Origin: Ruditapes philippinarum
Taxonomy: Eukaryota
Assembly: GCF_026571515.1 (NCBI RefSeq)
Contig: NW_026867228.1
Coordinates: 124,001 to 188,000, forward strand
Reading direction: 5' to 3'
Length of the DNA: 64,000 nt
Shown here: positions 17,589 to 42,638 of the stretch, one piece after another
Position numbering within the stretch: position 1 is the first letter of the stretch
How the letters are laid out: the number at the start of each line of letters is the position of its first letter
The notes under the pieces: model-generated
Databases searched by the model: none
The model's input: only the letters and a program-made list of their open reading frames with translations
What the model was told of the DNA's origin: nothing
Translations under genes and position numbers: made by a program

Positions 17589-17600
17589 GTTACCATAAAC
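17589..17600. promoter_or_regulatory. RFX X-box-like motif upstream of CFAP410-A
   Basis: GTTACCATAAAC resembles the X-box (GTTNCCATGGNAAC) known from ciliary gene promoters. The match is imperfect and overlaps the candidate ATG micro-exon. Confidence 0.35.
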
Positions 17601-17793
17601 TTGCGGTTTAGTTGTTGTTGTTGTTGTGGTCGATTTGTTACAATACCGTTCAGCTGAACCTACACATTCGCAATTTTAAAAGCAGTTTTCAAAAGGAACA
17701 CTCTATCGTCTTTATATAACCGCTAAATTCTTCTACGTGGCGATATACTATTATAAATAAAATCTTTGATAAGAACATTTAAACGTGCAACTG

Positions 17794-18126
17794 CACATTA
17801 TGCCTCAGAAATCAATATTTACTTAATTCTTTAGAAATGTTAAACACCTCTTTAATAATGTTTTAATAATGGATTTGTGCAGCTGAATGATGTAGTGCTA
17901 ATTGTGCATTAATGTGTTGTAAAGGTAGCAAAACTGTAAATAAAACAGCATTTTGACTTCCATACAAAATACTTATTCATTATAATTATACTAATTGCCA
18001 ACAAAGCAAAATATGCAAATATAGAACTTTAATCCTTATGGAAAATGAGTATTTTAGCAAGATACCAAACATTTACGTTTCTTTACATGAAAAAACTTTA
18101 GCATTTCTGGCATAAGAGGTCTTTAA
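17794..18126. mobile_element. MITE of the GCACATTATGCCTCAGAAAT family (mirror at ~42118-42452)
   Basis: Same TIR and body as the copies at ~48400-48780 and ~60408-60724. Confidence 0.7.
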
Positions 18127-18877
18127 ATAAATGATAGGCCTTTTACATAAACGATTTATCCAAGGCAAGAAAGTTATAAACGTTATAGCTATAAAACAAA
18201 ACATTTTAGAAAATTACAACATATGTTTCACGTATTGCACTATATTACTGGTTTTCCGAACATTCACAATTCTCTTTCAAATTCTACACACGGCATTTAT
18301 CTCAGCTTAAATATCGGTATCATTGTGAAACCAAGAATGTTATCTTATGTGCATAACTGTGTTCTTTTGTTCCCTGCACTCTGAATACAGTTTTTCATTT
18401 ATATATGATTATTACAGATTACAACATAAATTTTGCCAACAGACATTTTCTTACTTTACTTCGCTTTTGATTTCCAGTTGACTTGAGATTTTAAAATAAT
18501 TATCTTAAAATGAATGAGGCATGGACAACAGAAATAGGGAAAAAACTAAGAACTGTCTGAGTTTGAGAACTCTTGGCATGGTTTTAAAATGTATAAGCGA
18601 TTTATAATAAGATTTAAACATTATCGTACGTTCAAAACAATTTGATAATGCACATGCAGGCTATCATTTTTTGAAAATCAGGTGAAGGTAGTGGTGTTTG
18701 GTTGTTTTCACTCTCACTATACGGATCACGGCAGTAAACCACATTGAATTCACCAGAGCACTGTTTATCCACCACATTATTCCTGGATAGGATGTCAAGT
18801 TAGCTCCCTTCGCATTTTTATTCTTATTTTCCCTTTTTATTGTGAAACATTTGACCGATGCACAGGAGTGTGTATAT

Positions 18878-19047
18878 ATTAAGCAGTCTTACCAGTTACA
18901 GTTGCCTTCGCTTTCCACAAGGAACTGAAACTTCTGTGATCGTTGAAAGGATTTCGTGATCACTACGTAACTGGCTTGCCGTCCTGGATCGAACCCGGCC
19001 ACACGATTTACAGTCCAACGCTCTACTTAAAAGGGTAACCGGACGGC
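18878..19047 (-). mobile_element. Degenerate tRNA-derived SINE (Meta-domain-like); mirror at ~41195-41365
   Basis: tRNA-like head GCCGTCC...GTAGAGCGTTGGACTGTAAATC...GGGTTCGATCCAGGACGGC, followed by GATCACGAAATCCTTTCAACGATCA...CAGTTCCTTGTGGAAAG...ACTGGTAAGACTGCTTAA. Confidence 0.5.
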
Positions 19048-19486
19048 TAGTGCTTTTTTTCTAAAAATGATGAAATACTACTTATTCTTACCGTTAATCG
19101 TTATAATATTAATTAATTGCTAACATGTTATCTTGTTAAATAAATTAAAATTATTGTTAAAAACAAAATGTCTCATATTTAATTCTTTGTTCAGATTTTG
19201 AAAAAAATCGACCCGATGTATATATATCAAACATACCGGACAGTTCGCCGAGTTGTTACTGTCGACCCCTTTGAAACGCTTTTGCAATTGACGTCACTAA
19301 AGTTCCGTAAATTTTCCCCTTGCTAGTATAAATCTCGTATTCGCAGTCTTTAAATTGCCTGCACATGTTGAAAACGAATGGCCTGGTGCCCGAATAATTT
19401 TCCTTTAATAATTGATTTGTATGTATCTGAAGGAGCATTGATAATATATAGGCAAACTTTACACTACCGTTTTTTTAGCAAACGTC

Positions 19487-19838
19487 TGATTAATTGATTT
19501 ATTCGATTGATTCGGGGTAATGGATAGCCTACGAAAGTGCAAGCACTTATTTCCAGTAGGGTCCTCACCTAAGTAGACACTAGAGACAGCTTTGAGATAC
19601 AAAGGAATCCGGGAACCTGTCCCTAGCTCTTATTGAATAGAAGATCCCTTGGTTCTTTTGTATGCCCAGTGTGTAGCACTGATACATGCGAGGATTACCT
19701 GGGTTTCGTACCAGTTTACCTCTAGGGAAGTTGGAAGCACTGATAGTGTTTCTGAAAAATCCCAAGGGTGTTACCCAGGATCGAACCCGGAACCTCAGGA
19801 GTTACAGTCAGTGGTCTAACCAACTGAGCTATCGCGCC
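19487..19838 (-). mobile_element. tRNA-derived SINE (V-domain-like body, CR1-like tail), left-arm copy
   Basis: A box TAGCTCAGTTGG, B box GGTTCGATCC, body CACACTGGGCATACAAAAGAACC, tail GGACCCTACTGGAAATAAG...GGCTATCC and a degenerate (AATC)n end. Confidence 0.8.
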
Positions 19839-22800
19839 ATCTACGTCATATTTTTAGATTCAACGCTATGACAACTGCTGTTTAAAACTTGATAAGTGCA
19901 GCTTAAATTCAATAACTTTTTTGAATTGCTGCGCCGGGTGCGTGTGACCATGGTTATTCCATATTGCAGGGAACAAGCATTTAGCACAATTATTTATTAA
20001 CCTTATGCTCAAATTGTAGAAACATTGTACGGTCGATATAATATAAACATATTTGAAATTGAATTGATGATGCAAGACTGTAAGTCCAATTCGTTTTTAA
20101 ACAACTCTCGTATAACATTCACTTTTGATTGAAATATCATGTATGCGATATGTACGTATGAGTACATGTCTGGTAACTTATGTTGTTTTGACGAGAAATT
20201 AACAATTGTGCAAAATCAGATATCTAGCTTCACAAACCAAAGGCTTATATAATCTCAAAGCATAAATCTGTATGATTTTGTATTGTCTTTCTGATAACAT
20301 TATCCTGTGAATTTCTAACAACAGTTGTTCTGATGAAACAGTATGATGCAACAAGAGCAAATCATATAACTGTCATTGCGCGCTAACTAGCAGATATTTA
20401 GATGTTATCATAAAACATTCTAAATCAAAATTATACTTTTCACTTCAACTATAACTTCAACTATAAGAAACGAGCAAATATAAGCAATGCCTTTGAAATT
20501 CTGAAATGATCAGCTAACAGGGGCAACAGTTTTAGAAATTTTACTAAGAAAAAATGATAAGAACCAGGCCTACTCATTAAATCAAATTAAAAAATGATTG
20601 CATATTAAAATTCAAATTAAAACATCTTCCTGGTTAGCTTTAATTTTATGCTACATTATATAAAAATATGTTTTAAATCTGCGGAGAATAAAAGGATCGA
20701 ACGAGAAAGTTAATGAAAGTATAATATTTTTCAATAAATTACTTTGTCAGCTTCCTGAGAAACTATGTTACAATGTTATATACATATTGCATGAACTTGA
20801 ACATTTTCTATCACATCTTCATCGTACGGAAAAGATCATCATTCTACGTGACAGAAACTATATGGTTATTTGAAATGTTTTGAGAGATTTTTGCTCACGT
20901 GGTTATACAATTGAAGCAACTGCTTGCAAATTTTATCTTCATCTCAACTCTGGTTCTTTTACTATTGTTATCAAACAAAGAATTAAACCAATAAATCAAA
21001 TCTTTTGTTGCTTTGTCAGTCGATTTTGCTATTGAAATGTTGCAATATGTTACAAGGCAAACAGTATAAATTAAGCACAGACAACATGCAACTACACCTC
21101 AGACGTCCAGTCAGTGAAACACGTGAGTACATAATATATCATTATATATATGTATAATTGTTATATTTCATAAAAGTGACATTATGCTTAAAACTGTACC
21201 ATGTTTTTGACAATTATTTAATTAGTTCTTTATTCAAACTAGAAATGTTTTTGTTTCGAAACAGCAAAATTTCATGTAGACCTAGTTGATTTAGCTATTT
21301 AAATATGACTAGTGGGAATATGTAAATTTATCTGTGTTTTTGCTTTTTAATTAGCCATACATCTTTACGGATGACATAGAAACGATTGCGTTCTCTCTCG
21401 TATGATCACTTACCACTTAAAAATTACATTGTACAGATATCGGATAAACACGTTCATCCTAATAATAGTCAATGGTAGCAGTAACCATGTAGATATACAA
21501 ATAATATTTTAGAACAGATAAGATTTGTAATTGTGCTTGTATGATTTTATTGTGTTCACGATGTATAAAGGGACCGCTTTAAGTGTCATAGAATCCTTCA
21601 AAACAACCTTAAGTAACTATCTGTGTTACATTTTAAAACAAAGTTACATTGTATTTATAACAAAAGCAAACGTTGTGCCTGTTTTGCTTATGAAATATGT
21701 CCGTTGCGCCAAAACAATCTCCTTTGCGTATTTTAGTCATACCAAAGCCAAGTTGGTCTTGACTTTAGGCAAGTGCGATTTTGCAATAATTCATAGAAGC
21801 ACTTCTGAAGCACGTTCGATTTAACAATTCTGGTTCTCGGAATCAATTCTTCATGGAATCAAAGATCAAGTGGTAAAAAGATGGCGAATTCCATAGTAGG
21901 TTTCAGTAATAGAATTATTTAACGTACATCGTTGAAACCGCCAATGCAGGGATTTCTTTTTTTCCTTTCTCGTTATTTCAAGCTATATGACTGATTAAAA
22001 CAATCCATCATCTTCATCCAGCATTATTAAAAGTGAAGTGACTTTGTAATTTACTACAGCTTTCTTCACCATTTTGAATATCTCCTTAGAACTTTATTAC
22101 TTTTTTCTTGATTCAGAAACGGAATCGTTCGATTCAGAATTACTTCCAACACGTGACTTTTTATTCTAGAATCAACAAATCGCTCCCGTCTTTAAACATC
22201 GAGTTTATGCAAATTGAAGTGAAATAAATTTATATTGGTTACAATGATGAAAATGATAATGTACATACGAAAAATACAACATAACTAATAATATTTATTT
22301 TAAAGCACATAACAGTAAACCTCATAGCAGTTGAGGAGAACATTTTGTTGTTGTTCATGTTTAGAAAAAAGTCAACTCTTTGCCGTAGAGATTATCCCGT
22401 AAGCCACACAAAATAAACATACTACACAAAATCTTTTGAAATGTTAAATAAACATGTTTTGAATATACACAGAGAAAACATGTTATGTTAATATTCATTT
22501 CTACACATTACGAATAATCACAGTATGAATGCTTAGTGACCAGCTTTAGTTGCCATCCAATGAAATTCCGTCCATAGTCGCCATCTTTTTTTATATTACT
22601 TCATAGAACCGCCCTCGTAAAAATTAGTCGTGACATAATAAAGGACAAATAAAGCTTGACACCAAGTATGTTAGTATTCATCCGTAGCTGTTCTAAAGCA
22701 AATAGAAACGTTCTCCTGTCGCCGTCGCTCCCGTCGAAGTCTCTAATTTCTGAAGAACAGCACGGATGAACACTAACATATACATAGTGTCATTAAAAAA

Positions 22801-23432
22801 CTGGCAGTTTTTGTAAAAATAGACCAAAATAATTTGACAAGTAAAAGGGAAGGCAGCTTCCCAAACATAGTTTATATATTCACTTAATCAAATTAGACAT
22901 ATTCAGGGAGAATTTACTAAATTGCAGTAAATTTCTGCAGTATAAGTATTGAATCCAAAGATGGGCATAGCTAGTATATCTTTAAATGTTGAATTCTGCT
23001 AAAGCAAATTTTAGGGGACTGGGGTAATAGCTTGCAATAAGCACTAACGTCCATGAACGGCTCAATCTAACCGGGGCTGAAACAATTTCAGTTTTTTTCG
23101 TATTGGGTTTTCTTTAGGGATTTTGTTTTTCTCTACTTTGTTAATCTTATGCATTATAAAGACTTCAAGACTCGAATACGATGACAAATACATTAAACGT
23201 GACATAATATTAGTAAGCGTAAAATACCTCGCTTATAAGTAACTCCATTTTAGCATAATGAAATGACAATTTTTCACAAGTACAGAGAGAAAATAACAAT
23301 TTCATAAAAGTTATATTCAATTAATTATTAATCAATTGGTTGCCGTTGAATCATGCTATTTTTTGCATTTTCAGAAAGAAAATACTCTTTCATTTCGCTC
23401 TTGCCTTCTTGGAAATTGCCAATCTGTAAAAC

Positions 23433-24452
23433 ATGAGGTCATTTATCCTACCTACCACGGTATGACTTATTTCTAGTGCAATTTAATCGAATCTTAATTT
23501 TATTGATCGTTGATTTCTGAAATAAAATTTATTATATGCCTTTTTTCCCAATTTAAGCTGTGATTCACTTTTAAAATCTTAATAGTATCATTAGAGCTAT
23601 TGTCTTAGTAACAAGTAAAATATCTTTAAAACAACCATAACAAAGTTGTAAGTTGTTCAATTTTTATAACATTACTCAGTAAGTGATATTTCAGATATGT
23701 ATGTTGCTGTTGGTTGGTTTGGAAACAACAGAATCACAGGGATGTGGTAAATTTCAGCTTTATATTTTACACTAAATGCCTGATTAACGTATCCGAGTAT
23801 TACAACAATCAATCAAATCATGTCGCATCACAAAGATGCTATTAATACAGTTTTATAACATTAAGAGATACTTCCTCACAATAAATGTAAAAAGTGATTT
23901 CTTCAATTAATTTTTTTTTTGCTACATACATTTTGACATAAACAAACATTGATTATAATTATTTTATAAAATAATGTTAGGCTATTCCTCGTGTTATATT
24001 ACTATAATAAACAGACTTGACATTTTCTTAAAATTTCCATTATTTTGCCTTCAGTTACCACACCGAAAGTAGCGTTTAACGCATATTCCAGTACTGGGGG
24101 TAATTACGGCGTCGACGAATCTATCATATTTCCTGTTGTATTGCTTAATGAAGGTTGTGGTTATAACGAAAGCACTGGGATCTTCACAGCCCCTGTGGCT
24201 GGAATGTACCAGTTTAGCGTTCAGATATGTAATGCCGCATATAAATATTTGTGCGCAGCTATTGTACATGAAAATACTACAATAGCAATTACAACAAATT
24301 ACGACACAGTAAGTACCTGCAGTTCGACAATGGTTCCAGCAAAAATTGAGACGGGTGATCAAGTTTATGTCAAGAGTACATACGAAGAAAGCGTCATGTA
24401 TTCAAATAAGAACAGATGGCCATCCTTCACCGGTCTTCTTACAAGTGTTTGA
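23433..24452 (+). CDS. Secreted globular-head C1q domain-containing protein, copy A (158 aa)
   Basis: Exons 23433-23459, 23695-23746 and 24055-24452 with GT-AG junctions in frame. Signal-peptide-like MRSFILPTTICMLLLVGLETTES, then gC1q motifs VAFNA, IIFPVVLLNEG.GYNESTGIFTAPVAGMYQFS, GDQVYV and SFTGLL. Confidence 0.93.
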
Positions 24453-27400
24453 ACATAGTCATGAAATTCGACAAAAATCTGACACTTGAGAATTTTCAAT
24501 TACATAAGAAATAAACTGATTCAATAATATTCCACATTCTTTACTTCTATTTGTGCGTACGAGTGTTAAGATGTTATTATATTTTACAGAATTGAACGAC
24601 TTGCACTCCCCATCACAATGGACAGGCTCTATCAAACTGAGCCTGCAACATTTACAATTTTGTCGTTTTGGACGCGTTCTTTAGAAAATGTAATAGATAC
24701 AGAGGTTATGAAATCTGCATATCACATATAAGATGAAAAAGTTATTTTTAAAAAAGCAGTATAATATCCTAAAAGTGTTCGTATAGTATTCAAGTATGAA
24801 TGCTTAAGTCATCCAAGTTGTTAACGTTTACTTAATAAATGTCAAATAGAAGAAACTTAACATACCACATAACATTTATACACAACGCAATCGTTTCTTT
24901 TTTCATAACTATTTTATTTAGTAATTTTCCGGATGTAAAATCTTATACGACTTGAATACAAAGCATGCATAGCTGCGGACCGACACAATTTGTCTTGTGT
25001 TCCCTCAATAAAAATGTAAACATAAATTCATAAACACTATAATGTTATGCGTTCACCAAACAACTCCGTTCGAGTTAGTCGTTCATTGGTGGGTGAAAAT
25101 GAACGTAGGACTTGCTCGGCTTGTCTTAATAAGTGCAACATCATTAATATGATTGTATATTTCAGTTAGCTAATCTTTAATTTATTTAACATTACTACAT
25201 TTATTTTATTTTACCAGATATAAATAATATAAAGCAGTTTAATTATAATTAATAGTTATGTAAATGGAACATTTGATGGCAAGTAAGATCGTGAGCAGTT
25301 CATACGGGAGTGCTAAAACCCTAGCATTTTATGAAGCAATCATAATAAAAAGCTCAAAACATTATGCTTATATATAATACATAATTATTTTAATATTTGA
25401 TAATATCTTGAATTGTGTAGCATCAGTAAGTATGAATGCGGCGGAGGACATCACCCAAACATGTTTTTAATTATCTACTGCATATCTGTGAAGCATTTAA
25501 GACTGTTCCTGATTGGAATGAATCTTGACCCCAAACTCTGCAATCCATTAAACTAGCTAACGAAAGACCAGCTGTAACTGGCGAAACAAGACGGGTGCGA
25601 AAAAATCAATGTAACCTTATATTCAATTTGTACCAAACATTTATTTGTGACATTCGTTCAAATAATTACCAGATGAGCTTCTCGTTCAGCCAAACAACTG
25701 ATCGGATGACACAAATGTGCATTGAATCGGTTGTCCTTCTTTGATAAAAGGGGCAAATGTTTATAAGTACCTGTCCTATATTTTTACTTTATGTGCACTT
25801 CTTATTGTAGTATTGGTTGTATCATATCATGGTTTGTTCGTAGTTAAACGACAAATGTATATCCCATGGGGTTTATTTAGTGTAGTCTTAATTTTATTCA
25901 TTCCCGCCAAAACATTTCTAACATCGGTCAATATCGCAATTAATCAGTCATTTCCGGAATGTTATTTTTCACGATTATCGGTTTTCAATAATTCTTAACT
26001 GTTCATAGCCGGAATTTAGTCCAAAGAAATAAATGATGAGTGATTTAAAATAATAATGTCCAAGATTTTGAAAAAAAAATCGTACAGCAATAACTGATTT
26101 GCTACGATATTGCCCGATGTTAGAATATTTTGCGGGAAAGCATTACAGTAACACTATTTTAAATGAACAAACGTTAATTTACTGTTTCACATTTGTACCA
26201 AATAAAAAACAATCATACAAGTTGTCGTAATGAAGAATTTAAGCAGGTTTCTTTTCTGCCCGTAAAAATATAAATGTCTTTTTGTTTCTGCCCGTAAATA
26301 TATAAATGTCTTTTTGAAGATTAATTTTACAGCTGATATTATAATTAGGAATTTGCTCAAGATTTCCATAATTGAGGGGTAATCTTTGTTCACTAAAGCA
26401 AGGAGGACTGTTTAGAAATTATCAAAATTGCAACAAAATGTTGAAAAAAGGACTTGGATTTGTTGAAGTAATGAAAAGAAAATCACATGAAATCCAGTTT
26501 AAATTTTATTACAAATAATTCCGTACCAGTAAAAGGTGGATCAATCCACCATAAGTCGCAAAACATGTATTTTAACAAAGATCTTATGGCACAATAAAAC
26601 AAATGAGGATTAATTCGCCTCTTCAATGTACTTCAAACAAAAGACTATGTATGTGGCTGACTAATCCACCTTTATACAATACTCAAAACTAAAATGTTCA
26701 ATTATAAAACAAATAGGAGTAGTCCGCCTTATTAAAAGTAACTAAAGACGTGTTATATTTTAAGTAATCTTTAGAAAACGTTAACTTAAAACCTTATATA
26801 TACAATTATCAAAACTTAAAACTATTAAACAATCAAAGCACTGAAAGTACTGAAGTATACATTGCTTGATAATATAATCCATTTTTGTCATCAAGGCCAT
26901 GTTGATTTTAACCTATTGACTTCAAAAAGAATAGGGGTCATCTTCTGACCAAGGTCAATGTCCCTAACAAGTGCATCACATGCACCAAAGCTTCTTTCTT
27001 CCAAAGTTATTTATGAGACAAGGAAGATGTGATGTTCCATCTGTGTATTGCTAGGCAAGCTGATAGATGAGCACTAAAGAAATCATTTTTTAAAACACCT
27101 GTTAAATGGACTGCAGTATAGAATATTGAAACAGTCATATTGAGTTTCCAGTGATGATATCTAATAAAATACATGATCTGGTTTGAACTCTATACAAAGT
27201 CAATTAATTGAATCATCCTACAAGACTTAAGCTTAATTCCCAAATTATAGTACATCCTTTTGTATAGCTTTCCATGTTACAGATCTATGTACTGTACTTT
27301 GATGCACTAATACATATATTCTGGTGTGTTACACATTAATTTTCAAATGCATTACTTTATCGTTTATTAATAAAAATGAAATCTATAATCAAAACAATTC

Positions 27401-28099
27401 TAATGTACTGTAATATTTTCATTATTCAATAATTGTTACATATAGTCTTCATATACAACATTTCCAAGAAATTACTGGACAGCAAGTTAACAAGGGTTTT
27501 TCCATAATCAGGCTGTGTTACCAACTTCTTAACTTTAGATGAACCATTGAGCTAAAACATTTTTCTATTTTTTTGCTACTGTGACCTACTTCTGATTTTC
27601 AACCAAGGTGATCCATGTTCAAACTCGAGCAAAACCTGTCACACACATTCTTACGATGTTGTGTAACAATTGGGGCAAAAGTGTGACCAGTAGAGAGTTA
27701 ACAAACAAAATGACCAGCAGAGTGTTAACAACTGTAATGTCATCGTCGGATACACATGGTTGATTAACATTTAACATGACATAACTGATAAATGTAAATA
27801 GTTCGGCCGTGGGTACCCGACGATGCTAAATGTGGACAGACCACAGTTGACATATGATGGATGACCAACATTCAACAATCTAAAGCCCCACCCTGAGCCA
27901 ACCTATAAGTTTCACCACTGGTATAAATAATATGATAATAAAAATGAATACTGCGTAATGATTTAGATGAAATGTAGCCATTATATCAGAAGTAAATTAT
28001 TGCTTTTCTATATATGTTCTTTACTCTATTGTAACTACGCAAGTTCATATAGCATATAAATATAAAACGACTGCTAGATTATTTTTTACTATAAACAAA

Positions 28100-29120
28100 T
28101 AAAAAGTAAAAGTTGATTATTTAAACGATTGAAAAGTCTATTTTATGGGTGTTTTTATTCATATACCTTTCTTATCGCGCGTCGAATGTGGTTTTCGGCT
28201 TTCCCATGTTTTTAACGCTGACTGTTACATAGCCGAAAAAATACAAGTTTTTCTGTATTTATTACAAAAAATAACTGCCATTTTACAAAGGTAAAAAAAA
28301 GTAATAGTTATTCATTTAAACGGTTGAAAAATGTATTTAGCAGCACTTTTTTAAATAATATATCTATTTTATCGCAAGTAAAATGTGCTTGTTTGTTTGT
28401 TTGTTTGTGTTTTGTTTTTTGTTTTTTGGCGGGGGGGGGGGGGGCTTTTCTATTTTCTACGTTTTTGACGCTAGGCAGTAACATAGCCGAAAAACACTTT
28501 CATACAATGTTTATTACAAAAATATTACTGATATTTTACATTGCTTACAAATATAATGTTATAATCATTCATATAAACGGTTGAAAAATTTATTTAATAG
28601 TTCTTATTTTAAACATGTCCATTTCACCGCCAGTAAAATGTGTGTGTGTGTTTTTTTTTTGTTTTTTTTTTTTGCTTTTCCATGTTTTTGACGCTAGACC
28701 GTTACGTAGCCGAAAAACACTTTCATACTGTATTTATAAAAATAATATCTCTGACATTTTCCATTGGTAACAAAAGAAAGTAATAGTTATTCATTTAAAA
28801 GGTTGAAAAAAATTAATAGCGGCTCATGTTTAAACTACGACTATTACATCGCCAGTAAAAATGTGTTTTTCGGCTTTTCCATGTTTTTGACGCTAGACTG
28901 TTACGTTGCCGAAAACACTTTCATATCGCATTAAATACAGAATAGAATCATTCTCTAATTTACACTGGTTGCAAAAAGAAAGTAAATTTTAATCATTTAA
29001 AGGATAGAAAAAAAGTAGATAAAACTAATTTGTTGGAATTATACCAATTGTATCGCCGTAAAAAGTGTTTTTCGGCTTATCCATATTTTTTAAGCTTGCC
29101 CGTTGAGTTTCCAAAAACAT
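28100..29120. repeat. Five-unit tandem repeat (~200-260 bp period) with an internal inverted repeat
   Basis: Recurring GTGTTTTTCGGC-TTTTCCATGTTTTTGACGCTAGACTGTTACG-TAGCCGAAAAACAC units near 28190, 28445, 28675, 28865 and 29065. Confidence 0.8.
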
Positions 29121-29779
29121 TTATATAGTGTGTTCTTTTCGATATAATGCTGATAATTGATAAATTTATTGATCGGAATTGTGAAAAAAAAACAATTTCT
29201 CTAAGAATAGCTTACGAAATTTCTATTTTTCGAATCCACGATAATTGCCAGGTTTAAAAAAAAATATTTTCCGATATACGCTGGTAAATTTTGTTACGGA
29301 GCTCCATACTCGTTTTGTAAAACACATTAGGCCAATTTTATTGCATAAATGTAAATCAGGAATTTTATTTGATTAAATATTTATCTGAGATGTTTCGTCC
29401 CATTTATATAATTCTGACGACTTTACTATATTTACGATGTATTCATTCATGCTAGCAAGCGTATGCGTATATGCGAAGTTTAACGCGTAGGTATAAACTA
29501 CGATTTTATCAATGAACTGTTTTTTTTTTGTTTTCTTTAAAGGAATGTAGAGTCTATTATTTCATGAACATGAACGATTAAGAACTTTCAAAGCATTTAA
29601 ACAACTTTGCAAACACTATTTTAATTATGTGTAGTCGGAATGTAACGCTACTGCAGAAAGAACTAGTTTCTATAGCGGTTTTTATCCGGGAGTGGATGTT
29701 GTTCGGTAACGACTTAACCTGTAACGATTTCTGAGATATAGCTTATAACTCTGTATACATTGCAAGCAATGTATACGAA

Positions 29780-30720
29780 AAGGAGTACTAGTCCGCCATT
29801 TTCTATCGATGTCAGATCAAATATTATGCATTTTTCTAGGAGTCTTTTGAAAACGTCACCTGAAAAGACGGACTAATCCAACTTTATACCATTATCAAAA
29901 CTAAACAACTCGATAATAAAACGTTAAGAAGCATAAGTCTGCCCTTTTCAGTGAAACTCAAACTAAGGATCAAGAAGTCTTTAGAAAACGTTAATTGAAG
30001 TGGTGGACTTATCCACGTTTATGCAATAATCAAAACTAAACAGTTCAATAATAAAACAAAACAAAAGAAAGGACTAGTCCGCTTCATTCAATAAAACGTA
30101 AACCAAAGTCGTAATATTTTTCAAATAATCTTTTGAAAAGGTTACTTGAAATGACGGATAATCCACCTTTTTACAATAATCAAAACTAAAAACTCAATAT
30201 TATAAAACGTGAAGGAGAATTAGTCCGCCTTTTTCAGTGAAATTCAAACTAAGGATCAAGGAGTCTTTAGAAAACCTTAATTGAAATGGCGGACTTATCC
30301 ACCTTTATACAATAATCAAAACAAGAATGTTCAATAATTAAACAAACAGGAGGACTAATCCGCCTATTTCAATCTAATTAAATTCAAATACTTAACATTT
30401 TTTATAGAAAACGTTAATTAAAATGTCGGACTAATCCACCTTGATATAAGAATCAAAACTAAAACGAAAAGAGGACTAGTCCACCTTTTCAGTCTAACTC
30501 AAATCAAATCTATGCATTTTTTTTAAGAACTTAAAAAAAAGTTAACTAAAATGACGGACTAATCTTCTTTGATACAATAATAAAAACTAAACAACTCAAG
30601 TATAAAACGTGAAGGAGACTAGTACGCCTTTTTCAATGAAACTCAAAATAAAGATCAAGGAGTCACTGAAATGACGGAGTAATCCAACTTTTTACAATAA
30701 TCAAAACTAAACAACTAAAA
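29780..30720. repeat. ~140-bp tandem repeat array, left inner arm
   Basis: GGACT(A/T)ATCCACC variants recur at ~29870, 30005, 30156, 30291, 30428, 30556 and 30676, with a GGACTAGTCCGCC sub-repeat half-way. Related monomers occur at ~26500-26830. Confidence 0.9.
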
Positions 30721-31729
30721 TATATATAGAAATGACAGTGACATGTGATACAGGTGCCCCCACACTACATTTTTTCAACTACATCAGGACAATATGGCAG
30801 AGAGACAGACAAAAGGAAATTCTACATGACTCTCCCTACCCCTAAGTAGTTGGGTTATAAAAACAGCATCAATTTTTTTCTAATGTTGACATACTGATTT
30901 TTGCCCAACTACACATGCTGACCAAAAGTCCTGCAAACTTCACACAACACGACATTTTGAAACTGTTTTGTTAGGGGCACTTTCTCTACAATTTTTTATT
31001 GAATATGCACGAAATCCAGGTGCACAACTACAAATGCTGACAAACATTTCTGAAAAATTACATGTCTTTAGGTCAAACGTCTATAGGCTACATGCAACAC
31101 TTGATTGAAGGACAAGACTCCTCCCATCCAAAAATGATAGGGACTGGTGAAAACCCCATTTGTCCAAAAAGAGAGGTGTGCTGTGATGTTTTAAAAGACA
31201 TAGAATCCTAATTCATGATATTTATGGAATGACATAAAGGATTTTGTATTGTATTATTATTATTAGAATAAAGTTTATCATTTCAGTGACTCCCATTTTC
31301 TAATAATTTCACTGGTCAGAGAGATTTTACAGCTGGCTTAGTAAAAGTTGTTCCTTCTACTAGCTGCAAGTTTGTACCTGTAATAATAAATTAAAGGCAT
31401 TTCTGGTCATAAATCACCATTTAAGATTGATATTCGCCTTAACGATAATTGATATTCATTTGCTCAATTCAGCTCGATACCAAACTTAAAATCAGTCCCA
31501 GCTAATTTATTAAGCCCTTGATGACAGCTTATTTTCAATTATTTCAACTAAAATTGTATGCTAAAGGTTTTGACTGTAAAATATTAAAGATAATCTTCTG
31601 TAACTATTGTATTTTTTTTTCTGCATCTAGCCTAAATCCTGTGCTTTTTATGCTATATAATATTAATATCATGCAAAAGATAAAGATTTTATGTAATCCA
31701 TAAATATATATATATGTATATATAATTAC

Positions 31730-32790
31730 GTTGTTTAGTTTTGATAATTGTAAAAAGTTGGATTAGTCCGTCATTTCAGTGACTCCTTGATCTTTATTTT
31801 GAGTTTCATTGAAAAAGGCGTACTAGTCTCCTTCACGTTTTATACTTGAGTTGTTTAGTTTTTATTATTGTATCAAAGAAGATTAGTCCGTCATTATAGT
31901 TAACTTTTTTTTAAGTTCTTGAAAAAAAAAGGATAGATTTGATCTGAGTTAGACTGAAAAAGGTGGACTAGTCCTCTTTTCGTTTTAGTTTTGATTCTTA
32001 TATAAAGGTGGATTAGTCCGACATTTTAATTAGCGTTTTCTATAAAAAAAATGTTTAGTATTTGATTTGAATTAGATTGAAATAGGCAGATTAGTCCTCC
32101 TGTTTGTTTAATAATTGAACATTCTTGTTTTGATTGTATTGTATAAAGGTGGATAAGTCCCCTATTTCAATTAACGTTTTCTAATAGTTTGAATTTCACT
32201 GAAAAAAGGCGGACTATTTCTCCTTCACGTTTTAATATATTGAGTTTTTAGTTTTGATTATTGTATAAAGGTGGATTAGTCCGTCATTTCAAGTAACCTT
32301 TTCAAAAGATTATTTGAAAAATATTACGCCTTTGGTTTACGTTTTATTGAATGAAGCGGACTAGTCCTTTCTTTTGTTTTGTTTTATAATTGAACTGTTT
32401 AGTTTTGATTATTGCATAAAGGTGGATAAGTCAACCACTACAATTAACGTTTTCTAAAGACTCCTTGATCCTTAGTTTGAGTTTCACTGAAAAAGGCAGA
32501 CTTAAATAACACGTCTTTGGTTTAAGTTACATTTGATAAGGCGGACTACTCCTATTTGTTTTATAATTGAACATTTTAGTTTTGAGTATTGTATAAAGGT
32601 GGATTAGTCAGCCACATACATAGTCTTTGGTTTAAAGTACATTGAAGAGGCGAATTAATCCTCATTTGTTTTATTGTGCCATAAGATCTTTGTTTAAAAT
32701 ATATGTTTTGCGACTTAGGGTGGATTGATCCACCTTTTACTGGTACGGAATTATTTGTAATAAAATTTAAACTGGATTTCATGTGATTTT
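31730..32790. repeat. ~140-bp tandem repeat array, right inner arm (inverted)
   Basis: Recurring GGTGGATTAGTCC. 31730-32503 mirrors 29936-30715, and 32505-32790 mirrors ~26490-26760. Confidence 0.9.
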
Positions 32791-34811
32791 CTTTTCATTA
32801 CTTCAACAAATCCAAGTCCTTTTTTCAACATTTTGTTGCAATTTTGATAATTTCTAAACAGTCCTCCTTGCTTTAGTGAACAAAGATTACCCCTCAATTA
32901 TGGAAATCTTGAGCAAATTCCTAATTATAATATCAGCTGTAAAATTAATCTTCAAAAAGACATTTATATATTTACGGGCAGAAACAAAAAGACATTTATA
33001 TTTTTACGGGCAGAAAAGAAACCTGCCTAAATTCTTCATTACGACAACTTGTATGATTGTTTTTTATTTGGTACAAATGTGAAACAGTAAATTAACGTTT
33101 GTTCATTTAAAATAGTGTTACTGTAATGCTTTCCCGCAAAATATTCTAACATCGGGCAATATCGTAGCAAATCAGTTATTGCTGGAAGATTTTTTTTTCA
33201 AAATCTTGGACATTATTATCACTCATCATTCATTTCTTTGGACTAAATTCCGGCTATGAACAGTTAAGAATTATTGAAAACCGAAAATCGTGAAAAATAA
33301 CATTCCGGAAATGACTGATTAATTACGATATTGACCGATGTTAGAAATGTTTTGGCGAGAAAGCATAAAATTAAGACTTCACTAAATAAACCACATGGGA
33401 TATACATTTGTTTTTTTTTTAACTACGAAAAAACCATAATATGATACAACCAATACTACAATAAGAAGTGCACATAAGGACAGGTTCTTATGAACATTTG
33501 CTCCTTTTATCAAAGTAGGACAACCAATTCAATGCACATTTGTGTCATTCGATTAGTTGTTTGGCTGGACGAGAAGCTCATCTGGGAATGTCATTAATAA
33601 ATGTTTGTTACAAAATTGAATACAAGGTTACATTGATTCTTTCGCACCCGTCTTGTTTCGCCAGTTACAGCTGGTCTTTCGTTAGCTAGTTGGATGGTCA
33701 AGATGCATTTCAATCAGGAACAGTCTTAAATGCTTCACAAATATGCAGAAGATAATTAAAAACATGTTTGGGTGAAGATCTCCGCCGCATTCATATTTGC
33801 TGATGCTACACAATTCAAAATATTATCAAATATTAAAATAATTATGTATTATACATAAACATAATGTTTTGAGCTTTTGATTATGATTGCTTCATAAAAT
33901 GCTAGGATTGTTAGCACTCCCGTATGAACTGCTCACGATGTTACCAAATAAAATTGCCATCAAATGTTCCATTATATAACTATTAATTGTAATTAAACTG
34001 CTTCATATTATATATCTGTAAAATATAATAAATGTAGTAATGTTAAATAAATAAAAGGTTAGCTAACTGAAATATACAAGCCGATTAATAATGTTGCACT
34101 GATTAAGACAAGCCAAGCAAGTCCTTCGTTCATTTTCACCCACCAATAAACGACTAACTCGACCGGAGTTTTTTTGGTGAACGCATAACATTATAGTGTT
34201 TATGAATTTATGTTACATTTTTATTGAGGACACACAAAACAAATTGTGTCGGTCCGCAGCCATGTATGCTTTGTATTCAAGTCGTATAAGACTTTACATC
34301 CGGAAAAATACTAAATAAAATAGTTATGAAAAAAGTAACGATTGCGTTACATGGTTATTTTAAAATGCTAAATATTAAATGTTATATGGTATGTTAAGTT
34401 TCTTCTATTTGACATTTATTAACGTTTACAACTTGGGTGGCTTCAGCATTCATACTTGAATACCATACGAACACTTTTTAGGATATTATGCATGCTGTTT
34501 TTAAATTATCTTTTTTTCATCTTATCTGTGATATGCAGATTTCATAACCTCTGATTTTCTGTATCTATTACATTTTCTAAAGAACGTCCAAAACGAAAAT
34601 TGTAAATGTTGCAGGCTCAGTTTGATAGAGCCTGTTCATGGTGATGGAAAGTGCAAGTCGTTCAACTCTGTAAAATATAATAACATCTTAACAACTCGCA
34701 CGCACATTTAGAAGTAAAGAATGAGAAATATTATTGAATCAGTTTATTTCTTATGTAATTGAAATTTCTCAAGTGTCAGATTTTTGCCGAGTTCAATGAC
34801 TATTTTAACTG

Positions 34812-35808
34812 TCAAACACTTGAAAGAAGACCGGTGAAGGATGGCCATCTGTTGATATTTGAAAACATGACGTTTGTTGCGTATGTACTCATTACATACA
34901 CTTGATCACCCGTTTCAATTTTCGCCGGAACCATTGTCGAAGTGCAGGTACTTGCCATGTCCCTAATTGTTGTACTTGCTATTCTAGTATTTTCATGTAC
35001 AATAGCTGCAGTCATATAGTAAGATCTGGCATTACATATCTGAAGGCTAAACTGGTACATCCCAGCCACAGGGGCTGTGAAGATCCCGGTGCTTTCGTTA
35101 TAACCACCACCTTCATTAAGCAATACAACAGGAAATATGATAGTTTCGTCGGCGCCGTAATTTCCCCCAGTACTGGAATATGCGTTAAACGCTACTTTCG
35201 GTGTGGTAACTAAAGGCAAAATCATGGGAATTTTAAGGTCAAGTCTGTTTATTATAGTAATAGCACGAGGAATAGCCTTACATCATTTTATAAAATAATT
35301 ACAATCAATGTATGTTTATGTCAAAATGTATGAAGCAAACAATATAATTGAAGAAATCACTGTTTACATTTATTGTGAGGAAGTATCTCTTAATGTTATA
35401 AAACTGTATTATCTTTATGATGCGATCCGACATGTTTTGATTGATTGTTGTAAAAACTTGGATACTTTAATCATGCATTAAGTGTTAAATATAAAGCTGA
35501 AACTTACAACATCCTTGTGATCCTGTTGTTTCCACACCAGTCAACAGCAACATACATATCTGAAAGTAATGTTATAAAAAATGAACAACTAACAACTTTG
35601 TTATGGTTGTTTTAAAAATATTTTACTTGTTACTAAGACAATAGCTCTAGTTATACTATTAAGATTTTAAAAGTGAATCACAGCTTAAATTAGGAAAAAA
35701 GGCATTTATGAAATTTTATTTCAAAAATCAACGATCAATAAAATTAAGATTCGATTAAATTGCACTAGAAATAAGTCATACCGTGGTAGGTAGGATAAAT
35801 GTCCTCAT
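34812..35808 (-). CDS. Secreted globular-head C1q domain-containing protein, copy B (158 aa)
   Basis: Exons 35808-35782, 35559-35508 and 35209-34812 have the same sizes and phases as copy A. Protein reads MRTFILPTTICMLLLTGVETTGSQGCFTTPKVAFNAY...SFTGLLSSV. Confidence 0.93.
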
Positions 35809-38095
35809 GTTTTACAGATTGGCAATTTCCAAGAAGGCAAGAGCGAAATGAAAGAGTATTTTCTTTCTGAAAATGTAAAAAATAGCATGATTCAACGGCA
35901 ACACCAATTGATTAATAATTAATTGAATATAACTTTTATGAAATTGTTATTTTCTCTCTGTACTTGTGAAAAATTGTCATTTCATTATGCTAAAATGGAG
36001 TTACTTATAAGCGAGGTATTTTACGCTTACTAATATTATGTCACGTTTAATGTATTTGTCATCGTATTCGAGTCTTGAGGTCTTTATAATGCATAAGATT
36101 AACACAGTAGTGAAAAACAAAATCCCTAAAGAAAACCCAAAACGAAAAAAACTGAAATTGTTTCAGCTCCGGTTTGATTGAGCCGTTCATGGACGTTAGT
36201 GCTTATTGAAGGCTATTACCCCAGTCCCCTAAAATTTGCTTTAGCAGAATTCAACATTTAAAGATATACTAGCTATGCCCATCTTTGGATTCAATACTTA
36301 TACTGCAGAAATATGAATCCCTGAATATGTCTAATTTGATTAAGTGAATATATAAACTATGTTTGGGAAGCTGCCTTCCCTTTTACTTGTCAAATTATTT
36401 TGGTCTATTTTTACAAAAACTGCCAGTTTTTTTTAATGACACTATGTATATGTTAGTGTTCACCCGTGCTGTTCTTCAGACATTAGAGAGAATGTTTCTA
36501 CAGTGAAACCTGTCTTATCCGAACTCGTCTGGACCGGAAGTGAAAGCCGAATTAGAAAAGTTTCCGGATTTGCTTTAGATGTATTTGCTTGAGAACAGCT
36601 ACGGATGAATACTAACATACTTTGTGTAAAGCTTTATTTGTTTTTTATTATGTCACGACTATTTTTTACGAGGGCGGTTCTATGAAGTACTATGAAAAAT
36701 AGATGGCGGCTATGGACGGAATTTCATTGGATGGCAAATAAAGCTGGACACTAAGCAATCATACTGTGATTACTCGTAACGTGTTGAAATTAATATTAAC
36801 ATAACATATTTCCTCTGTGTATATTCAAAACATGTTTATTTAACATTTGAAAAGATTTTGCGTAGTATGTTTATTTTGTGTGGCTTACGGCCATCCAGTT
36901 GCCGGATAATCTCTACTGCAAAGAGTTCACTTTTCTCTTAACATTTGCAACAACAAAATGTTCTCCTCAACTGTTATAAAAGTTACTGTTATGCGCTTTA
37001 AAATAAATATTATTAGTTATATTGTATTTTTTCGTATGTACATTTTCATCATTGTAACCAATATAATTTATTTCACTTCAATTTGCATAAACTCGATGTT
37101 TAAAGACGGGAGCGATTTGTTGATTCTAGAATAAAAAAGTCATGTGTTCGAAGTGATTCTGAATCGAACGATTCCGTTTCTGAATCAAGAAAAAAGTAAT
37201 AAAGTTCTAAGGAGATATTCAAAATGGTGAAGAAAGCTGTAGTAAATTACAAAGTCACTGCACTTTTAATAATGCTGGATGAAGATGATGGATTGTTTTA
37301 ATCAGTCATATAGCATGAAATAACGAGAAAGGAAAAAAAGAAATCCCAGCATTGGCGGTTTCAACGATGTACGTTAAATAATTCTATTACTGAAACCTAC
37401 TATGGAATTCGCCATCTTTGTACCACTTGATTGCTCTTTTAATTCTTTGATTCCACGAAGAATTGATTCCGAGAACCAGAATTGTTTAACCGAACGTGCT
37501 TCAGAAGTGCTTATATGAATCATTACCAAATCGCACTTGCCTACATTGGCGTTGGTATGACTAAAATACGCAAAGAAGATTGTTTTGGTGCAACGGACAT
37601 ATTTCATAAGCAAAACAGGCACAGCGTTTGCTTTTGTTATAAATACAATGTAACTTTGTTTTAAAATGTAACACAGATAGTTACTTTAGGTTGTTTTGAA
37701 GGATTCTATGACACTAAAAGCGGTCCCTTAATACATCGTGAACACAATAAAATCATACAAGCACAATTACAAATCTTATCTGTTCTGAAATATTATTTGT
37801 ATATCTGCATGGTTACTGCTACCATTGACTATTATTAGGATGAACGTGTTTATCCGATATCTGTACAAAGTAATTTTTAAGTGGTGAGTCATCATTCGAG
37901 AGAGAAAGCAATCGTTTCTATGTCATCCGTAACTTACAAAAGATGTATGGCTAATTAAAAAAGCAAAAAACGCAGACAAATTTACATATTCCCACAAGTC
38001 ATACTTACATAACTAAATCAACTACACTAGGTCTTACATGACATTATGCTGTTTCGAAACAAAATCATTTCTAGTTTGTATGACGCACTAATTAA

Positions 38096-39020
38096 ACAAG
38101 TTTGCTTCTTTAAAAAAGAAGCATGCAAGAGGTCTTTTTTGCACCTGTGGAATATTTGTTTAATTCGAAAATATTTTGGAATATTTGTTTGCATAAAAGG
38201 CACAATGAATATAAATTACAATTATTTAACAAAAAACAATTTATAATATAAATTGAATATAGTATCATAATGAAAGTTTGTTTCATACTAAATTTCTTTT
38301 AATGTTTTGAAAGATTATATGCCGGAGAAATGGACTTTTTCCTTGGCGCATTAGGAATACTTTTTCTACAAAGGGTACAATTTATGTTATGTCATCAAAC
38401 TAAATCGGGCAAAAAGTATGCTAATCAAACAATTTTAAGTCCCAGATTTACATAAATATGTGTATATCATTTGATTGGAATAAACAGTAAATAAAGATGC
38501 ATGACTCCAACCACAATATTTAAAAATAATCAAACTTGAGTAAAATTTATGCCATTTGCGCCAAAAAACTCCGTTGCGTTATTTAGTCATACCGGTTTAA
38601 AAGTTAAGCAAAACTTCGAACACGGTTCACTCGGTCATATAAAAGTGCATGGTGATATTGTAGCTATAATGTTCAAAGTGACTATTTATCGAACATGAAA
38701 TAGTAAAACGCTATTCAGAAAACAATACGGTAATCGATTTATACAGTTTAAAAGATTAAAACGAAATGAAACATCCACGTAGCGCTAAGTAACGTAAATG
38801 ATATTTTCCGATTTTTCCATGTACCGATTTGTTCACTTCAATGCTAATTTTTCGTTTAAGTTAAGTCGTATTTTGAAGCGGAGCATGCGCACAACAGTTT
38901 TTGTAGACTGCTCCTAATGATTTTACGCTTTAAATGAGATTCATTCACTACAAATCAGATACGCAAAAATGGATGCCGCCAGCAATCAGTCTGAACACTG
39001 TGGACAGGTCTGATGACCTC
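38096..39020. mobile_element. ~0.9-kb right-arm-only insertion, probably transposon-derived
   Basis: The mirror site at ~21210-21240 is uninterrupted. The insertion begins next to TTAA. No clean TIR pair was seen. Confidence 0.5.
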
Positions 39021-40419
39021 TCAAATAATTGTCAAGAACATGGTGCAGCTTTAAGCATTATTTCACTTTTATGAAATATAACAAGTATACATAATTATAT
39101 AATAATACAGAAGAAAAGTTAAAATTAGCTTATTTATTATGTACTCACGTGTTTCACTGACTGGACGTCTGAGTTGTATTTGCATGTTGTCTGTGCTTAA
39201 TTTATACTGTTTGCCTTGTAACATATTGCAACATTTCAATAGCAAAATCAGCTGACAAAGCATCAACAGATTTGATTCATTGGCTTAATTCTTTGTTTGA
39301 TAACAATAATAAAAGAACCAGAGTTGCGATGAAGATAAGATTTGCAAGCAGTTGCTTCAATTGTATAACCACGTGAGCAAAAATCTCTCAAAACATTTCA
39401 AATAATCATGTAGTTTCTGCCATGTAGAACGAGGATCTGCAACGTACGATGATGATGTGATAGAAAATGTTCAAGTTCATGCAAAAGGTATATAACATTG
39501 TAACATAGTTTCTCAGAAGCTGACAAATTATTTTACTGAAAAATAGTATACTTTCATCAACTTTCTCGTTCGATCCTTTTATTCTCCGCAGATTTAAAAC
39601 ATATTTTTATATAATGTAGCATAAAATTAAAGCTAACCAGGAAGATGTTTTAATTTGAATTTTAATATGCAATCATTTTTTAATTTGATTTAATGAGTAG
39701 GCCTGATTCCTAGTAAAATTTCTAAAACTGTTGCCCCTGTTAGCTGATCATTTCAGAATTTCAAAGGCATTGCTTATATTTGCTCGTTTCTTATAGTTGA
39801 AGTTATAGTTGAAGTGAAAAGTATAATTTTAATTTAGAATGTTTTATGATAACATCTAAATATCTGCTAGTTAGCGCGCAATGACAGTTATATGATTTGC
39901 TCTTGTTGCATCATACTGTTTCATCAGAACAACTGTTGTTAGAAATTCACAGGATAATGTTATCAGAAAGACAATACAAAATCATACAGATTTATGCTTT
40001 GAGATTATATACGCCTATGGTTTGTGAAGCTAGATATCTGATTTTGCGCAATTGTTAATTTCTCGTCAAAACAACATAAGTTACCAGACATGTACTCATA
40101 CGAACATATCGCATACATGATGTTTCAATCAAAAGTGAATGCTTATACGAGAGTTGTTTAAAAACGAATAGGACTTACAGTCTTGCATCATCAATTCAAT
40201 TTCAAATATGTTTATATTATATCGACCGTACAATGTTTCTACAATTTGAGCATAAGGTTAATAAATAATTGTGCTAAATGATTGTTCCCTGCAATATGGA
40301 ATAACCATGGTCACACGCACCCGGCGCAGCAATTCAAAAAAGTTATTGAATTTAAGCTGCACTTATCAAGTTTTAAACAGCAGTTGTCATAGCGTTGAAT
40401 CTAAAAATATGACGTAGGT

Positions 40420-40760
40420 GGCGCGATAGCTCAGTTGGTTAGACCACTGACTGTAACTCCTGAGGTTCCGGGTTCGATCCTGGGTAACACCCTTGGGATT
40501 TTTCAGAAACACTATCAGTGCTTCCCACTTCCCTAGAGGTAGACTGGTACGAAACCCAGGTAATCCTCGCATGCTACACACTGGGCATGCAAAAGAACCA
40601 AGGGATCTATTCAATAAGAGCTAGGGACAGGTTCCCGGATTCCTTTGAATCTCAAAGCTGTCTCTAGTGTCTGCTTAGGTGAGGACCCTACTGGAAATAA
40701 GCGCTTGCACTTTCGTAGGCTATCCATTACCCAGAATCAATCGAATAAATCAATTAATCA
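40420..40760 (+). mobile_element. tRNA-derived SINE (V-domain-like), right-arm copy
   Basis: Mirror of 19487-19838 with the same A/B boxes and tail. Confidence 0.8.
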
Positions 40761-42638
40761 GACGTTTGCTAAAAAAACGGTAGTGTAAAGTTTGCCAATA
40801 TATTATCAATGCTCCTTCAGATACATACGAATCAATTATTAAAGGACAATTATTCGGGCACCAGGCCATTCGTTTTCAACATGTGCAGGCAATTTAAAGA
40901 CTGCGAATCCGAGATTTATACTAGCAAGGGGAAAATTTACGGAACTTTAGTGACGTCAATTGCAAAAGCGTTTCAAAGGGGTCGACAGTAACAAGTCGGC
41001 GAACTGTCCGGTATGTTTGATATATATACATCGGGTCGATTTTTTCAAATCTGAACAAAGAATTAAATATGAGACATTTGTTTTTAACAATAATTTTAAT
41101 TTATTTAACAAGATAACATGTTAGCAATTAATTAATATTATAACGATTAACGGTAAGAATAAGTAGTATTTCATCATTTTAGAAAAAAGCACTAGCCGTC
41201 CGGTTACCCTTTTAAGTAGAGCGTTGGACTGTTAATCGTGTGGCCGGGTTCGATCCAGGACGGCAAGCCAGTTACGTAGTGATCACGAAATCCTTTCAAC
41301 GATCACAGAAGTTTCAGTTCCTTGTGGAAAGCGAAGGCAACTGTAACTGGTAAGACTGCTTAATATATACACACTCCTGCGCATCGGTCAAATGTTTCAC
41401 AATAAAAAGGGAAAATATGAATAAAAATGCGAAGGGAGCTAACTTGACATCCTATCCAGGAATAATGTGGTGGATAAACAGTGCTCTGGTGAATTCAATG
41501 TGGTTTACTGCCGTGATCCGTATAGTGAGAGTGAAAACAACTAAACACCACTACCTTCGCCTGATTTTCAAAAAATGATAGCCTGCATGTGCATTATCAA
41601 ATTGTTTTGAACGTACAATAATGTTTAAATCTTATTATCAATCGCTTTAACATTTTAAGACCATGTCAAGAGTTCTCAAACTCAGACAGTTCTTAGTTTT
41701 TTTCCCTATTTCTGTTGTCAATGCCTCATTCATTTTAAGATTACTATTTTAAAATGTCAAGTCAACTGGAAATCAAAAGCGAAGTAAAGTAAGAAAATGT
41801 TTGTTGGCAAAATTTATGTTGCAATCTATAATACTCATATATAAATGAAAAACGGTATTCAGAATGCAGGGAACAAAAGAACACAGTTATGCACATAAGA
41901 TAACATTCTTGGTTTTACAATGATACCGATATTTAAGCTGAGATAAATGCCGTGTGTAGAATTTAAAAGAGAATTGTGAATGTTCGGAAAACCAGTAATA
42001 TAATGCAATACGTGAAACATATGTTGTAATTTTCTAAAATGTTTTGTTTTATAGCTATAACGTTTATGTATTTCTTGCCTAGGATAAATCATTTATGTAA
42101 AGGCCTATCATTTATTTAAAGACCTAGCTCTTATGCCAGAAATGCTAAAGTTTTTTCATGAAAAAAAAAACCGTAAATGTTTGGTATCTTGCTAAAATAC
42201 TTATGCCATAAGGATGAACTATATTTGCATCTTTTGCTTTGTTGGCAATTAGTATAATTATAATGAATAAGTATTTTGTATGGAAGTAAAAATGCTGCTT
42301 TATTTACAGTTTTGCTACCTTTACAACACATTAATGCACAATTAGCACTACATCATTTAGCTGCACAAATCCATTATTAAACCATTATTAAAGAGGTGTT
42401 TTGCATTTCTAAAGAATTAAGTAAATATTGATTTCTGAGGCATAATGTGCAGTTGCACGTTTTAATGTTCTTATCAACGATTTTATTTATAATAGTATAT
42501 CGCCACTTCTTTTTGGTTAAGTTTAACTCTCAGCAACGCAGAAGAATTTAGCGATTATATAAAGACGGCGTTCTTTGCACTGTACATAGAGTGTTCCATT
42601 TGAAAATGCGAATGTGTAGGTTCAGCTGAGCGGTATTG

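Follow-up and report, generated by a model that had tools for sequence, protein, structure and literature searches.

Twin secreted C1q genes of Ruditapes philippinarum: diverged loops, patchy flanks and a 5′ cassette likely derived from F-type lectins

Two genes for secreted globular C1q proteins, termed A and B, occupy a 64,000-nucleotide stretch of the Ruditapes philippinarum genome (contig NW_026867228.1, positions 124,001 to 188,000). This stretch is referred to as the window, and positions are counted from its first base. The genes are intact paralogues that encode 158 amino acids each and lie in convergent (tail-to-tail) orientation within a 40-kb inverted duplication. In the explanation favored here, which is given a probability of about 0.6, the loops of the two proteins are likely kept different by selection, the flanks have likely been converted, and the 5′ cassette of both genes likely came from an F-type lectin gene. 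Loop diversification is already known; the history of the F-lectin cassette is the unexpected part.

Divergence of the twin C1q exons

Protein A is identical to XP_060578276.1 and protein B to XP_060578274.1, both database proteins of R. philippinarum. Spliced contigs with GT..AG joints confirm the two coding introns; they come from X14, a guessed RNA run that is not on record as RNA (gene coordinates are given in Table 1). The Pfam C1q model (PF00386) scores 68 and 62 bits, against a cut-off of 23.7. An AlphaFold2 model with a predicted local distance difference test score of 93.6 has the C1q jelly-roll fold, with Foldseek template-modelling scores of 0.83–0.88 to Caprin-2 and C1q heads. A and B fit the secreted globular class (sghC1qDC), since the 158-residue models equal the database proteins, no match to a coiled-coil exon occurs in the window, and a signal peptide is recognized by eye; neither has the coiled coil ahead of the domain that characterizes type II C1q-like proteins. 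Cys58 and Cys88, invariant across 32 sequences, likely form a disulphide, and A has an extra N-glycosylation sequon at residue 73.

The domain exons differ at 40 nucleotides, in which a preliminary description of the window had counted 23 amino-acid-changing codons (32 nt) and eight synonymous ones. That codon count is exact, and the open frames, the quoted loop motifs and the unchanged core motifs are all as it described. The exon core (24231–24422) is the most divergent 192-bp segment in 9 kb of aligned sequence, against 4.9% overall. As a sign of selection, the 23:8 ratio fails: it is the neutral expectation for 305 nonsynonymous and 88 synonymous sites (dN 0.107, dS 0.117). Clustering of the changes in three segments is upheld by 5000 permutations (16 of the 23, against 12.0 expected; p=0.003) but not by an adjacency test (p=0.22). 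Two cysteines reported as private to A, Cys34 and Cys66 (exon-3 numbering), are indeed missing from B, but Cys34 is not a fixed A/B difference. Position 24156, in its codon, is G in every listed read or contig (36 of 36 in run X22, 40 of 40 in run X23, and four of four contigs in X14, one of them A-type), and codon 82 is likewise not fixed between the A and B types. Conversion of the B core from one other paralogue was considered and rejected; the distance of B to paralogues L004 and L005 is 0.29, against 0.30 for A. A leucine-rich-repeat (LRR) gene, co-duplicated with the twins, served as a control within the duplication and gave mixed results (four nonsynonymous and eight synonymous changes in 74 codons; seven and four in 65), and is a weak control with one copy truncated.

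Four predicted apex loops (A-A′, C-D, E-F and G-H) were assigned from strand order and fold topology. Of the 43 residues predicted to lie at the apex, 15 are unlike in the twins, against 8 of 88 others (p=5e-4), and few changes lie in core strands. The predicted apex loops hold 15 of the 23 changes, within ranges drawn after the differences had been seen. Nine amino-acid polymorphisms occur among B-type alleles within codons 60–119, eight of them inside predicted apex loops. In human C1q, the strands are conserved and the loops variable, and the apex binds Ca2+ and is a proposed site for some ligands (PMC3342031, cited, like the other sources below, for selected passages). From what is known of the family (PMC6835236), A and B would be pattern-recognition lectins. 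Their specificities are predicted to differ, and selection on ligand specificity likely maintains the difference between their predicted apex loops.

The codon site models that the preliminary description had proposed were self-written (F3x4, naive empirical Bayes) and fitted to 20 paralogue loci out of the 30 fetched. Those left out were L006, L023, L029 and L030, which are broken, and L021 and L024–L028, which are distant or gapped. Sites with omega (dN/dS) above 1 were found. M2a improves on M1a by a likelihood-ratio statistic of 39.4 (p=3e-9), with omega 4.7 at 4% of sites, and M8 on M8a by 36.4; family-wide omega is 4–6 at sites where the twins differ. With A and B removed, the M2a statistic is still 25.4, and the top sites (61, 85, 115 and 118) all differ between the twins. 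The 23 A/B changes are distributed as 20 among 59 unconstrained sites and three among 68 constrained ones, and the proportion of nonsynonymous differences (pN) at unconstrained sites is 0.19, against an intron 2 divergence of 0.098 (p=0.004).

Several results weigh against selection on the A/B difference. Pairwise dN/dS is 0.92. Masking of indel-adjacent columns lowers the site-model statistic to 13.4 (p=0.001) and leaves site 61 alone, while pN at unconstrained sites does not differ significantly from its synonymous counterpart (p=0.087). A branch-site test (statistic 7.9) draws its signal from codons with 3-nt changes, and site 82, which it ranks highest, is not fixed. In a small sample, fixed codon differences number 17 amino-acid and three synonymous, and set against polymorphism (17:3 vs 10:4) they give no significant contrast (p=0.41). 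Site tests may be inflated where paralogues have recombined, and the loop ranges were set from DSSP and fold topology, without coordinates and with the differences already known. Finally, A-specific sites (16) are also found in non-coding sequence at 24504–24903; an old tract that conversion missed would explain them without selection.

Such results invite a reading in which the loops drift under relaxed constraint and the divergence peak is an old tract missed by conversion, with no selection between A and B. It would account for the pairwise omega, for high divergence at synonymous sites (11%) and in intron 2 (9.8%) as well, for A-specific non-coding sites that reach to about 24900, and for the non-significant polymorphism comparison. 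This reading is nevertheless unlikely, given the family-wide omega of 4–6 at A/B-differing sites, including site 61 after masking, and a pN at free sites twice the intron divergence. Diversifying selection on the loops, as earlier proposed, is supported by the family-wide codon models and by site placement, but not by the pairwise count, and ligand specificity is predicted. Apart from a mistaken inference about the promoter (see below), the divergence between the A and B loops is an ordinary, well-supported case of a known pattern.

Arms, alleles and probable exchange

The arms of the inverted duplication differ by 4.9% substitution divergence over 9 kb aligned and by large insertions. The inner 24-kb palindrome recurs, with unrelated flanks, on contig C15338 (L034–L036, 83844–111797). 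Its genes are B-type in both arms and carry many small indels, so that they are either pseudogenes or poorly polished. The ends of the two C15338 arms lie no more than 16 bp apart, at window-equivalent 18088–18104, inside the end of a dispersed repeat, and a copy on contig C12234 likewise begins at window-equivalent 18091. Comparison of C15338 (139 kb) with C15715:24001–188000, on the contig of the window, gave no shared flank of at least 400 bp, and repeat-sized matches alone at higher sensitivity; C15338 may thus be a second locus rather than a simple haplotig.

When the four arms are compared, 95 sites group the arms within each palindrome, against 13 and 13 sites that group them across. 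This homogenized pattern includes 22700–23530. In the bin 24104–24503, A stands alone at 19 sites, and A-only sites dominate 24104–24903. The site patterns suggest that flanks were likely exchanged between arms by gene conversion, over tracts kilobases wide, around a resistant C1q-exon tract. Independent formation of the palindromes, together with an old tract, fits the four-arm pattern too. The divergence peak is broad, and other regions are 7–12% diverged as well.

An assembly artefact, in which two alleles were falsely joined as an inverted repeat, is very improbable. The small indels that fill the C15338 copies do point to poorly polished parts of the assembly, and the A-specific bases at 24101 and 24156 are missing from all listed reads. 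Against a false join, however, stand the 4.9% divergence and large insertions between arms, a second, independent palindrome with the same layout, and A:B depths in contig sets X2 and X9 that are not 1:1.

Among four DNA-type contig sets, B-type sequences occur in all four and A-type in two; contigs show presence and cannot prove absence of A-type. In X2, A-type has a depth of 8.4 and B-type one of 23.8, figures that do not equate to copy number, and in X9 A exceeds B. A scan of metagenomes for relatives gave 76 pattern matches, none confirmed. There is close to an even chance that A is no fixed paralogue but represents balanced alleles or a copy that one arm can dispense with, the common state being B-type in both arms. 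The two-of-four against four-of-four distribution, the B-type state of both C15338 arms and the depths in X2 all agree with it, while the limits of contigs as evidence of absence, the possible status of C15338 as a second locus (no flank in common) and the excess of A over B in X9 count the other way. Were it true, selection and capture as set out in the favored explanation could still hold.

In X14, contigs of both A-type (four differences, depth 359) and B-type (37 differences, depth 1523) are found. The co-expression of A and B that had been suggested is thus seen in a single RNA-contig set, with one supporting sample. In runs X22 and X23, exons and introns alike are covered at a low and even depth, and in X24 hardly at all; 4–6 in 100 of each run were read, and these runs give no evidence either way.

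Because the LRR gene copy of the A arm is truncated at its start, that arm is likely the derived one. Genome searches gave no matches to this gene beyond the two copies in the window, and its best full-length PDB match is 8axj_A; we take it to resemble CFAP410/C21orf2. On either side of gene A lies a degenerate piece of a single high-copy dispersed repeat, both pieces in the same orientation (22986–23162 and 24618–24684). The palindrome center is lined, in both palindromes, by a degenerate satellite-like repeat of about 130–150 bp (window 26650–26830 and 29770–32620). Unrelated to the C1q twins are a 78% direct repeat (window 131–1225 vs 7930–9104) and tandem arrays at 55154–55940 and 56125–56773.

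The upstream region and the likely origin of the 5′ cassette

The preliminary description held that the twins share near-identical upstream regions and one homogenized promoter. Upstream divergence is instead patchy, ranging from 0.5 to 12.5% per 200 bp, with 9.8% in intron 2, 11.5% in exon 2 and 2.3% in 22751–23374. Directly upstream of the C1q exon lie introns and two signal-peptide exons and no promoter, as seen from GT..AG joints and the RefSeq proteins. A 290-bp block at 20850–21140, conserved across 15 aligned loci, contains a TATA-like box, and all but one of the 15 have a GTGAGT donor as well; the paired TATA-like/donor motif occurs twice in the window and in none of 100 shuffles. Because this block holds both box and donor, 21123–23374 is predicted to be an intron, and the near-identical stretch 22751–23374 is likely part of it (intron 1). 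The putative promoter at 20850–21122 lies 2.3 kb further upstream, and the A and B versions differ at 13 of 272 bases (4.8%), which equals background divergence. A point against this assignment is that no RNA joint from the predicted first exon occurs among the contig matches listed.

Each of the convergent genes has a predicted promoter to itself, and the idea of a shared, homogenized promoter is not supported. That one homogenized promoter drives co-expressed subunits that form heterotrimers is accordingly quite improbable. In its favor are the A and B contigs in one RNA set (depths 359 and 1523), the homogenized segment 22700–23530 and the scarcity of core-strand changes; opposed to it are the separate promoters at background divergence and the two of four samples in which A-type was unseen.

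The 5′ part of gene A resembles genes of another lectin family. From 23324 to about 23920, the untranslated region, ATG exon, intron, signal exon and half of intron 2 are 66–80% identical to five F-type lectin loci, and the next exons of those five loci encode F-type lectin domains. Database proteins from two of the five contigs start with a near-identical signal peptide and belong to F5/8-type-C families (Pfam F5_F8_type_C). The F-lectin triad His-X26-Arg-X-Asp-Cys-Cys-X2-Arg is found in two of three proteins, with three motifs in P0011, one in P0012 and none in isoform P0010. In eel agglutinin, the triad is spaced as His52-Arg79-Cys82-Cys83-Arg86, which the donor lectins match, although the source text writes X24 (PMC5712786). 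Members of this donor family (L110/P0011, contig C6143) have 3–4 tandem domains, and one has an EGF insert.

On the other side of the junction in intron 2, homology is to the intron of L003, a coiled-coil C1q paralogue with an 83-residue predicted helix and the nearest relative of the twins' clade. In 20 of the 30 fetched C1q loci, L003 included, one exon encodes the signal peptide and a long predicted helix; the twins' clade lacks this coiled-coil exon, which its 20 nearest relatives have. The five leader-bearing genes (A, B, L004, L005 and L006) form a 100/98 branch that is sister to L003 and nested in coiled-coil genes, the nesting with L003 also being supported at 100/98. The promoter block has 26 genome matches, which fall on leader-bearing C1q contigs, contigs with F-lectin matches and contig C11692; none of the 26 lies on a coiled-coil C1q contig. 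In the promoter tree, the C1q promoters form a single 99/98 branch among those of F-type lectins; midpoint rooting of this tree tells against the weight that it can bear. Spare promoter copies occur on contigs C12238 and C13972, several in all.

Contig C11692 carries a distant C1q gene pair (L111 and L112; with L117 and L118) that is 32% identical to A and has the twins' promoter. Here, promoter homology ends at window-equivalent 23004, in a dispersed repeat, and homology to paralogues of the gene starts at the same base; paralogues 87% identical to the C11692 gene have no cassette in the 7.6–9.5 kb fetched. Two successive captures would be the simplest reading of the cassette's history, with the direction taken to run from F-type lectin to C1q. 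It is tentatively proposed, at somewhat less than even odds, that an expression-and-secretion cassette native to F-type lectins was serially captured, first by a coiled-coil C1q gene, with loss of the stalk and founding of a fast-evolving free-head clade, and then by a distant C1q gene. Narrow searches of open-access literature did not find serial capture of a 5′ cassette between lectin families.

The favored explanation may be ordered in five steps. First, a break in a phase-1 intron would have put the C1q exon of a coiled-coil gene behind an F-lectin promoter with its non-coding exon and two signal-peptide exons, as homology and nesting suggest, thereby removing the coiled coil and founding the clade of A, B, L004, L005 and L006. 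Inverted duplication, evident from the structure of the locus, would then have produced the twins, the A arm being the likely derivative. Thereafter, patchy gene conversion from arm to arm would have homogenized the flanks as the C1q-exon tract stayed distinct. Amino-acid changes in loops at the trimer tip are predicted to give different glycan or microbial specificities. Lastly, the distant gene on C11692 would have captured the same promoter later, as its junction indicates.

Other features of these leaders may be mentioned. The last residue of the captured leader, at the end of exon 2 (window 23744–23746), is Cys in A, B, L004 and L005 and Ser in the five F-lectin leaders, and this Cys might replace the lost coiled coil as a chain link. 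Distant C1q paralogues L024 and L026 have thrombospondin-like upstream exons (by eye), a third kind of front end.

Table 1. Coordinates of features in and around the C1q twins (window positions)
Feature	Position	Strand	Basis or remark
Gene A ATG exon	23375..23459	+	ATG 23433; exon start inferred; contig splice joint; XP_060578276.1
Gene A signal-peptide exon	23695..23746	+	splice joint; homologous exon in five F-type lectin genes
Gene A C1q-domain exon (398 nt)	24055..24452	+	diverged core 24219-24410
Gene A coding parts	23433-23459, 23695-23746, 24055-24452	+	
Gene B ATG exon	35782..35866	-	ATG 35808; XP_060578274.1
Gene B signal-peptide exon	35508..35559	-	
Gene B C1q-domain exon (398 nt)	34812..35209	-	diverged core 35045-34854
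Gene B coding parts	35808-35782, 35559-35508, 35209-34812	-	
Chimera junction, intron 2 of gene A	23918..23950	+	decayed F-lectin acceptor (about 23918-23927), then L003-intron homology from about 23950
Predicted promoter of gene A, with a short first exon (non-coding)	20850..21122	+	TATA-like GTATAAATT 21064-21072; donor GTGAGT 21123-21128; homologous to F-type lectin promoters
Gene A predicted 5′-UTR (untranslated region) intron	21123..23374	+	donor/acceptor motifs; includes near-identical stretch 22751-23374 and repeat piece about 22986-23162
Gene B predicted promoter and non-coding exon	39149..39420	-	TATA-like 39207-39199; donor 39148-39143
Inverted duplication, left arm, broken by insertions	9648..30728	.	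self-BLAST blocks 82-93% identical to 50326-31717
Inverted duplication, right arm	31717..50326	.	self-BLAST; spacer 30729-31716
Co-duplicated LRR gene, left copy	15136..17280	-	cut within first coding exon, no ATG
Co-duplicated LRR gene, right copy	45925..48385	+	ATG present

Related systems and significance

Chimeric genes that arise by exon shuffling or promoter capture include jingwei and Sdic, and conserved leaders precede variable secreted peptides in the conotoxin superfamilies. The clam cassette is like these in that a new coding module would have come, by way of an intron junction, under a promoter and signal peptide that were already there. It differs in that the folds concerned, F-type lectin and C1q, are unrelated, and in that the promoter apparently moved twice in series.

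Clusters of C1q-domain genes in the oyster Crassostrea virginica have undergone tandem duplication and episodic positive selection (PMC6835236). As in the clam twins, the oyster sghC1qDC proteins consist of a signal peptide followed directly by one C1q domain; they are recent duplicates, and selection marks a few sites in them, most within the C-terminal half, against an otherwise purifying background (PMC6835236). The clam genes differ in being an inverted pair, in their allelic loop variation, and in a secreted globular form that would derive from a coiled-coil (type II) ancestor by way of a foreign 5′ cassette; the passages of the oyster account drawn on make no mention of gene conversion or inverted copies. 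Exon 5 in the genes for red and green opsin and the RHCE/RHD pair likewise combine homogenized flanks and introns with one diverged exon tract (PMC3924837), whereas the clam peak is broad, with other regions 7–12% diverged, and its functional difference is predicted only. Presence/absence variation of C1q genes in mussels (PMC10514466) resembles the occurrence of A-type in some individuals, which in the clam comes from four contig samples. The crinoid N-acetyllactosamine (LacNAc) lectin OXYL has the same 158-residue secreted globular C1q architecture as the twins, with a measured ligand and a mainly tetrameric form (PMC6409975), while for the twins a trimer with glycan or microbial ligands is predicted.

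Knowledge of ligand specificity at the residue level is described as 'virtually non-existent' for bivalve C1q proteins (PMC6835236), and the twins, as a pair of proteins, make a clean test case for the C1q residues that determine it. The cassette capture would supply a base-resolved route from coiled-coil C1q genes to the secreted globular class, together with rewired expression across lectin families, and it predicts co-regulation of C1q and fucolectin genes. If true, new lectin folds would first be joined to a single regulatory programme already in place, and their binding loops would diversify afterwards.

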